A stretch of 45,057 nt of DNA from Escherichia phage Eeyore. The translations under genes were made by a program, and so were the position numbers. This document shows positions 35,920-35,974 of this stretch, one piece after another (the stretch's first letter is position 1; each line of letters begins with the position of its first letter). Where the stretch lies: sequence record PP925821.1; one strand, given 5' to 3'. The notes beneath the pieces are model-generated. The model saw only the letters and a program-made list of their open reading frames with translations. It was not told where the DNA came from and did not search any database.

Positions 35920-35974
35920 TTTTCTCGACAAACACTGAAAGCTGCCTCCGGGCGGCTTTTTTTATGGGGGGAGT

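Follow-up and report, generated by a model that had tools for sequence, protein, structure and literature searches.

The late operons of lambdoid phages are transcribed by a Q-modified, terminator-resistant RNA polymerase, and terminators inside such Q-antiterminated operons belong to the standard picture of lambdoid phages and morons. In phi80, late operon expression was shown experimentally to require Q (PMC11364771). Morons are horizontally acquired genes of deviant GC content that bring their own promoter and terminator and are expressed from repressed prophages (PMC3594210). Two independent phi80 records annotate a hairpin between genes 17 (M) and 18 (L), one as a 'putative rho-independent transcription terminator' (FN582354.1, 14016-14046) and the other as a 'putative rightward transcription terminator' (JX871397.1, 13996-14019). 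In N15, a 'putative rho-indep. transcription terminator' is annotated at the I/J junction, between genes 20 (I) and 21 (J) (NC_001901, 15307-15330).

We analysed the hairpin at the M/L junction of Escherichia phage Eeyore (PP925821.1), the whole stretch of 45,057 nt being referred to as the window. By its sequence, the window is a phi80/LLS-like lambdoid phage. It is largely collinear with LLS, and its long shared stretches with phi80 are confined to the tail module V to J. Around the M/L site, 1.1 kb were 97.2-97.7% identical to LLS, phi80, mEp043 and mEp213, and the junction was also found in 37 out of 5,426 complete genomes of E. coli, among them that of Nissle 1917 (NZ_CP022686, around 436447-436748). 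Since the two phi80 records annotate the same hairpin, it was already known at the annotation level. Because it marks a place where relatives insert morons, we regard it as an ordinary element and not as a novel regulator.

Anatomy of the hairpin in the 55-nt gap

The tail gene M homolog (35581-35919, + strand, 112 aa) matched Pfam PF05939 Phage_min_tail (E 1.2e-25), and its phi80 counterpart is annotated as minor tail protein M (gp17). The L homolog (35975-36712, + strand, 245 aa) matched PF05100 Phage_tail_L (E 1.1e-65). These matches confirmed that the 55-nt gap holding the hairpin and a T7 run lies between tail genes M and L, as a sequence-only reading of this DNA had proposed. M ends 17 nt ahead of the extended stem. 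The intervening 5' spacer (35920-35936, + strand) varies between lineages and is the position of cargo genes in relatives. In Pantoea-type loci (L089, L092, L103, L104, L108, L112), a perfect 12-nt palindrome, GTGACATGTCAC, spans the stop codon of M (TGA).

Read from the sequence, the core hairpin AGCTGCC-TCCG-GGCGGCT occupies 35940-35957, with 35940-35946 paired with 35951-35957 in five G-C pairs, one G.U and one A-U, around a 4-nt UCCG loop (35947-35950). We take C(UCCG)G, the loop and the pair that closes it, to be of the UNCG type. Three further A-U/G.U pairs extend the 7-bp core to a 10-bp stem, GAAAGCUGCC-UCCG-GGCGGCUUUU (35937-35960, + strand), which is indicated by the fold, by covariation and by the phi80 annotation. 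The T7 run (U-tract) lies at 35957-35963 (+ strand); its first T (35957) closes the 7-bp stem, and its first four T's are able to pair in the extended stem. The sequence-only reading had placed the element at 35939-35964, which was correct except for the end, position 35964 being the A after the T-run.

The RNA fold of the 37-nt hairpin segment had an energy of −16.1 kcal/mol, compared with −6.5 ± 2.6 kcal/mol for dinucleotide shuffles (z −3.75), and 2 of 200 shuffles matched it. The terminator-like hairpin with T7 claimed earlier was thus confirmed in the sequence, and it matches the phi80 annotation. The minus strand folded weakly (z −1.4) and had no T-run. The element is therefore rightward only, and a bidirectional terminator was ruled out. 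Our own terminator scan (at least 4 GC pairs, T-run of at least 5) returned five + strand sites in the whole 45-kb window, among which the M/L hairpin ranked lowest in free energy. A consensus terminator scan of the window did not list it, probably because the extension of the stem through A-U pairs consumes part of the T-run. A dispersed or REP-like repeat was ruled out, as no second copy of the 18-nt hairpin was found in the window when up to 3 mismatches were allowed. An Rfam search of 35400-36200 gave only sub-threshold matches (at most 20 bits, gathering scores 38-55), and no leader or riboswitch reached its threshold (Phe_leader scored 20 bits versus 55); these matches are driven by the generic terminator shape.

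Intrinsic terminators have a GC-rich stem of about 5-12 bp with a loop of 3-8 nt, followed directly by a U-tract of about 6-9 nt on the transcribed strand. Both parts are present here, in the hairpin and T7, 17 nt past the stop of M and co-oriented with all genes from Q to J. The structure is kept in relatives through compensatory changes, in rows that were chosen for having the hairpin. In form, the M/L element is a canonical rightward intrinsic (rho-independent) terminator motif, for which termination itself is predicted.

Directly 3' of the T-run follows the ribosome-binding region of L, ATGGGGGGAGT (35964-35974, + strand). A T-run followed by ATGGG.. was found in similar form 5' of L in most lineages. 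In the window, a mini-ORF of four codons (ATG GGG GGA GTA TGA, 35964-35978) begins right after the T-run, and its stop overlaps the ATG of L (ATGA); it is probably merely part of the ribosome-binding region.

Conservation and cargo at the M/L and I/J junctions

Every M/L junction was extracted from 80 IMG/VR loci and from 46 loci of species-representative genomes encoding an L homolog. Where L was at least 64% identical to that of the window, a GC-rich hairpin with a T-run of 5-9 nt preceded L in 70 of 73 distinct upstream sequences and ended 11-21 nt 5' of its ATG. The three exceptions without a hairpin before L were L098, L115 and L117. Random 60-nt windows from these loci were positive with the same detector in 4.0% of cases, or in 0.6% when the spacing also had to agree. 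The set spans more than 12 genera: the hairpin was found in Escherichia, Enterobacter, Citrobacter, Pantoea, Serratia, Rahnella, Erwinia, Siccibacter, Kalamiella, Rosenbergiella, Atlantibacter, Lelliottia, Leclercia, Gilliamella and others. None of the seven loci with an L of at most 52% identity had it; in most of these, M and L overlap in the lambda-type style. The M and L genes of N15 likewise overlap, with no hairpin at their junction.

The stem sequences were wholly different between lineages (for example AGCTGCC/GGCGGCT, AGCCACC/GGTGGCT, AGGGCGC/GCGCCCT, AGGACGC/GCGTCCT, GGGTCGC/GCGGCCC and AGGCAC/GTGCCT), and they change by pair-preserving steps between G-C, G.U and A-U. Covariation was scored on 40 distinct hairpins with a 4-nt loop, kept in register by constant artificial anchors. 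In these 40 rows, selected for having the hairpin, all seven stem pairs varied on both sides, and the covariation score was 0.83, compared with 0.24 in shuffles (reached by 0 of 500) and 0.09-0.21 in slid controls. The row selection inflates the percentage of paired positions; the count of 70 of 73 is unaffected by it and is the unbiased figure for conservation. Within the near-identical phi80 group, loops and flanks varied freely, and the only stem changes were pairing-preserving ones (A-U to G.U, G.U to A-U). As far as sequence comparison can tell, this shows that the hairpin structure is held by selection even at empty M/L sites.

The M/L gap was expanded in eleven loci, to 157 nt (L098), 481 nt (L069), 485 nt (L093), 496 nt (L067, L088), 516 nt (L105), 560 nt (L111), 752 and 755 nt (L077 and L127, respectively), 1020 nt (L129) and 1679 nt (L100). 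In 10 of the 11, the extra DNA sits between M and the hairpin; the exception is L098, where a hairpin directly follows M and none precedes L. The insertions are low in GC (0.35-0.46). Their products include small lipoproteins with lipoboxes, a secreted protein, a PDZ lipoprotein, a DUF1327 protein paired with a protein that has a weak, sub-threshold HEPN-like match, and a reverse-strand protein of 182-190 aa. For most of these cargo proteins, the Pfam search returned no family. The insertions fit the definition of morons.

Four of the expanded loci (L067, L088, L069, L093) carry a recurrent lipoprotein family of about 112-117 aa (MKRILLLAIALNLTGC..., ending ..SCL), which occurs in Citrobacter, Rahnella and metagenomic prophages and has no Pfam family. 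The 1.7-kb insertion in a Rosenbergiella metrosideri prophage (L100, 822-2500) encodes the DUF1327 protein (250 aa) on the + strand and, on the − strand, a protein of 201 aa whose RiboL-PSP-HEPN match is weak (E 3e-4, under the Pfam cut-off); from these matches, the insertion could possibly be defence or abortive-infection cargo inside the tail operon. In L077 (1749-2500) and L127 (1746-2500), the reverse-strand protein of 182-190 aa, without a Pfam match, is encoded between two rightward hairpin and T-run sites, the first immediately behind M and the second ahead of L. Cargo genes encoded on the minus strand, namely those of L077 and L127 and the 201-aa gene of L100, are not terminated by the right-hand hairpin.

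Hairpins at empty sites were as strong as those after cargo (median −12.6 kcal/mol for 41 distinct hairpins versus −12.7 kcal/mol for 8), and T-runs were about 7 nt at both; the empty-site hairpins are therefore not decaying scars. Among the relatives, M identity drops to about 50% where that of L remains at about 80%, so the M/L junction is also a mosaic boundary. In the window, the 55-nt gap contains no gene. No promoter-like site was found on the + strand in or near it, nor any sigma-70-like promoter (at least 9 of 12 matches) on the + strand upstream, at 28000-35939. The hairpin occupies the position that follows cargo in relatives and the cargo is absent, so the window has a moron site with its terminator rather than a moron.

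A sister element lies at the I/J junction of the window (38635-38660, + strand), where it was found by the scans and corresponds to the MorF terminator annotation in FN582354. It consists of a hairpin, AACCCAGC-TCAG-GCTGGGTT, and T6, directly before the ribosome-binding site and ATG (38672) of J, and follows a morF-like lipoprotein moron. Such a moron is present between I and J both in the window and in phi80, where it is MorF. Within the junction of the window (38045-38671), the ORF of the morF-like lipoprotein is listed at 38049-38606; its true start is likely near 38127-38130 (lipobox ISGC), and the Pfam search returned no family for it. J probably starts at ATG 38672 (MQLLHGETI...) and not at TTG 38572 of the mechanical ORF list. 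In LLS, which has no morF-like gene, and in N15, the I/J junction is empty and a lone hairpin with a T-run precedes J.

A motif like the 'T-run then ATGGG..' found before L precedes J at the I/J junction of N15, LLS and the window. The N15 I/J cassette, AGCCACC-TCCG-GGTGGCT-T7-ATGGGC (L131, 6308-6331), has an almost identical counterpart in the M/L cassette of L077, L111 and L127, three prophages from other genera. This near-identity suggests that a cassette of terminator and ribosome-binding site may move between junctions and phages. To judge from its occurrences, the 'hairpin, U-run, SD, AUG' cassette is a recurring module at the moron-prone junctions of these tail operons. Because relatives carry cargo at M/L and the I/J junction has the same design, M/L can be seen as a moron docking site with a resident terminator.

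Late antitermination and the function of the terminator

The window encodes a homolog of the late antiterminator Q (18180-18893, + strand; Pfam PF06323 Phage_antiter_Q, E 4.3e-40). It is collinear with LLS gene 48, from which its true start is probably near 18352. About 95 nt past the Q stop lies the first terminator of the late unit, a tR'-like site (18987-19012, + strand; hairpin 18987-19006 and T6). A weak promoter-like sequence, TTGCAA-17-CATATT, precedes it at 18924-18952, the terminator following about 35 nt further on. By analogy with lambda, we infer a pR'-short RNA-tR' arrangement just after Q, with a transcript of about 50-60 nt that would correspond to lambda 6S RNA. Our own scan placed two further terminators on the + strand before the lysis, head and tail genes, at 20091 and at 21374-21399. 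The hairpin at 20087-20116 is perfectly symmetrical and resembles a bidirectional terminator (AAAAAAACCCGC-TTAATA/TATTAA-GCGGGTTTTTTT); it is located inside the late unit between an unknown ORF and a DNA methylase gene (20317-21369).

All five strong + strand terminators of the window lie within the late unit, and three of them, similar in strength to that at M/L (18987, 20091, 21374), come after Q and ahead of the lysis, head and tail genes. Polymerase arriving at M/L must therefore already resist such terminators. The earlier view that a full terminator would be unexpected in the tail operon does not stand, given that Q is encoded, that three similar terminators lie upstream and that the context is one of morons.

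The M/L element is probably a resident rightward rho-independent terminator at a recurrent moron insertion site of phi80-type tail operons, read through by Q-modified polymerase. During lytic growth, Q-modified RNA polymerase would pass the terminator, so that L, K, I and J are expressed. Polymerase without the modification, including that started at moron promoters or at spurious promoters in a repressed prophage, would stop there. The terminator would thereby end cargo transcripts and insulate the distal tail genes L, K, I and J in the prophage. The site in the window is an empty one, with only the terminator and the ribosome-binding site of L left. This explanation is built on the observed hairpin and T-run, their strict orientation, their conservation with covariation, the cargo upstream, the presence of Q and the upstream terminators; from these we infer actual termination, read-through under Q and a selective benefit at empty sites.

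The sequence-only reading had instead suggested an attenuator that sets the stoichiometry of the distal tail proteins. Q-modified polymerase would then terminate at M/L at some frequency, lowering the L, K, I and J mRNA relative to that of the upstream tail genes. Among the terminator-like sites on the + strand, that at M/L is the strongest in the window, and the selection at empty sites suggests some function in the phage's own life cycle, both of which speak for an attenuator. So does the lambda virion, which contains six copies of gpM and three each of gpL, gpI and gpJ; however, gpH is also present in three copies (PMC10721106). The step is at most 2-fold and, because H is encoded upstream of M and is already at three, there is no clear stoichiometric reason to place it at M/L. 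The three similar terminators upstream precede the head genes, whose products are needed in the largest amounts, so resistance to termination is already required there. In N15 and lambda-like relatives, whose M and L belong to the same gene families and whose tail-tip design is assumed to be the same, the two genes overlap and no hairpin is present. An attenuator leader was not apparent either: no alternative helix is conserved, the spacer upstream is unconserved, and pairing between the Shine-Dalgarno sequence (SD) and the spacer was at chance. Cargo insertion at M/L fits a moron terminator better, and the attenuator is doubtful.

It is also unlikely that the terminator is kept at empty M/L junctions by a role in the phage's own lytic programme and not just as moron baggage. 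Such a role could be that of a post-transcriptional boundary, acting as a barrier to exonucleases or as a 3' end bound by Hfq, which would give the head-to-M and L-to-J parts of the late mRNA different fates. Alternatively, it could be a checkpoint that allows L, K, I and J to be expressed by Q-modified polymerase only. If a lytic role were true, M/L and I/J would share the 'hairpin, U-run, AUGGG-SD' cassette as a mobile regulatory module under selection.

A stable hairpin with a U-tail is the typical 3' end of Hfq-dependent sRNAs, and the M/L element resembles it. The hairpin could accordingly be the 3' end of an Hfq-binding sRNA cut from the late transcript, or a barrier to 3' exonucleases that stabilises the upstream message after cleavage in the downstream U/A-rich stretch. 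There is a precedent in lambda, where the sRNA PreS ends at the terminator tL2a inside an antiterminated operon (bioRxiv 10.1101/2024.10.31.621285). Conservation of the structure and not of the sequence would agree with a role in RNA stability or processing. However, the spacer 5' of the hairpin is wholly different between lineages, which leaves no conserved single-stranded stretch as a candidate seed, and no Rfam match came near any gathering score. We consider a function of this kind quite unlikely.

An element of translation is very unlikely. The hairpin and U-run would organise the initiation of L, the U-run serving as a standby site or binding S1; alternatively, a long-range helix would mask the SD of L until M has been translated. 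The SD of L is always within a few nt of the T-run, the hairpin ends 11-21 nt from the ATG, and minimum free energy folds often pair the spacer after the M stop with the SD. Yet the SD-masking helix was no more common than with shuffled spacers (mean z −0.03; 0 of 25 lineages significant). With SD pairing at chance in these 25 lineage representatives, the long-range helix coupling L to M was rejected. A U-rich enhancer would need no GC hairpin, and it is the whole terminator anatomy that is conserved, not the U-run alone.

Least probable is a neutral scar, a terminator left by a lost moron and harmless under Q without present function: M/L is empty in the window and occupied in relatives, and Q-modified polymerase would ignore the terminator, but empty-site hairpins are intact in about 25 lineages and as strong as those after cargo, which makes a decaying scar unlikely, and every stem change keeps pairing even in the phi80 group, where loops and flanks vary.

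The comparative gain is modest: the M/L junction of phi80-type tail operons is shown to be a recurrent site of cargo insertion, with a terminator held by selection even when cargo is absent. The M/L terminator also provides annotators with a reliable landmark for accessory or defence genes in prophage tail operons.

Comparison with described terminators

Like lambda tR', the terminator of 6S RNA, and other terminators overridden by Q, the M/L element has the form of a canonical intrinsic terminator on the path of late transcription, which Q-modified polymerase must read through, and the window has a tR'-like site of its own at 18987. Unlike tR', which follows directly on the late promoter and is the target through which Q regulates, the M/L site lies about 17 kb further downstream, and no regulatory role is known for it.

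The promoter-gene-terminator cassette of MorF at the I/J junction of phi80 and the HK97 gp15 moron also place an intrinsic terminator at a gene junction in a Q-dependent late operon, and relatives of the window hold low-GC accessory genes at M/L, upstream of the hairpin. The window differs from these morons in having no cargo gene and no recognisable promoter, and in that its lone terminator is conserved empty in many lineages. The I/J junction of N15 is closer in this respect, with a lone hairpin and T7 directly before the ribosome-binding site of the tail gene that follows, and nothing else in the junction; the difference is that N15 has its hairpin at I/J, whereas its M and L genes overlap without one.

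The closest system is the M/L terminator of phi80, which is the same element. The surrounding 1.1 kb are 97.5% identical, and the only differences in the gap are a single C/A substitution in the spacer and an additional T in the T-run. The host genome of the element differs, the window sharing the tail module V to J with phi80 and being otherwise collinear with LLS, in whose record the hairpin is unannotated. The stem and loop of the phi80 and window hairpins are identical.
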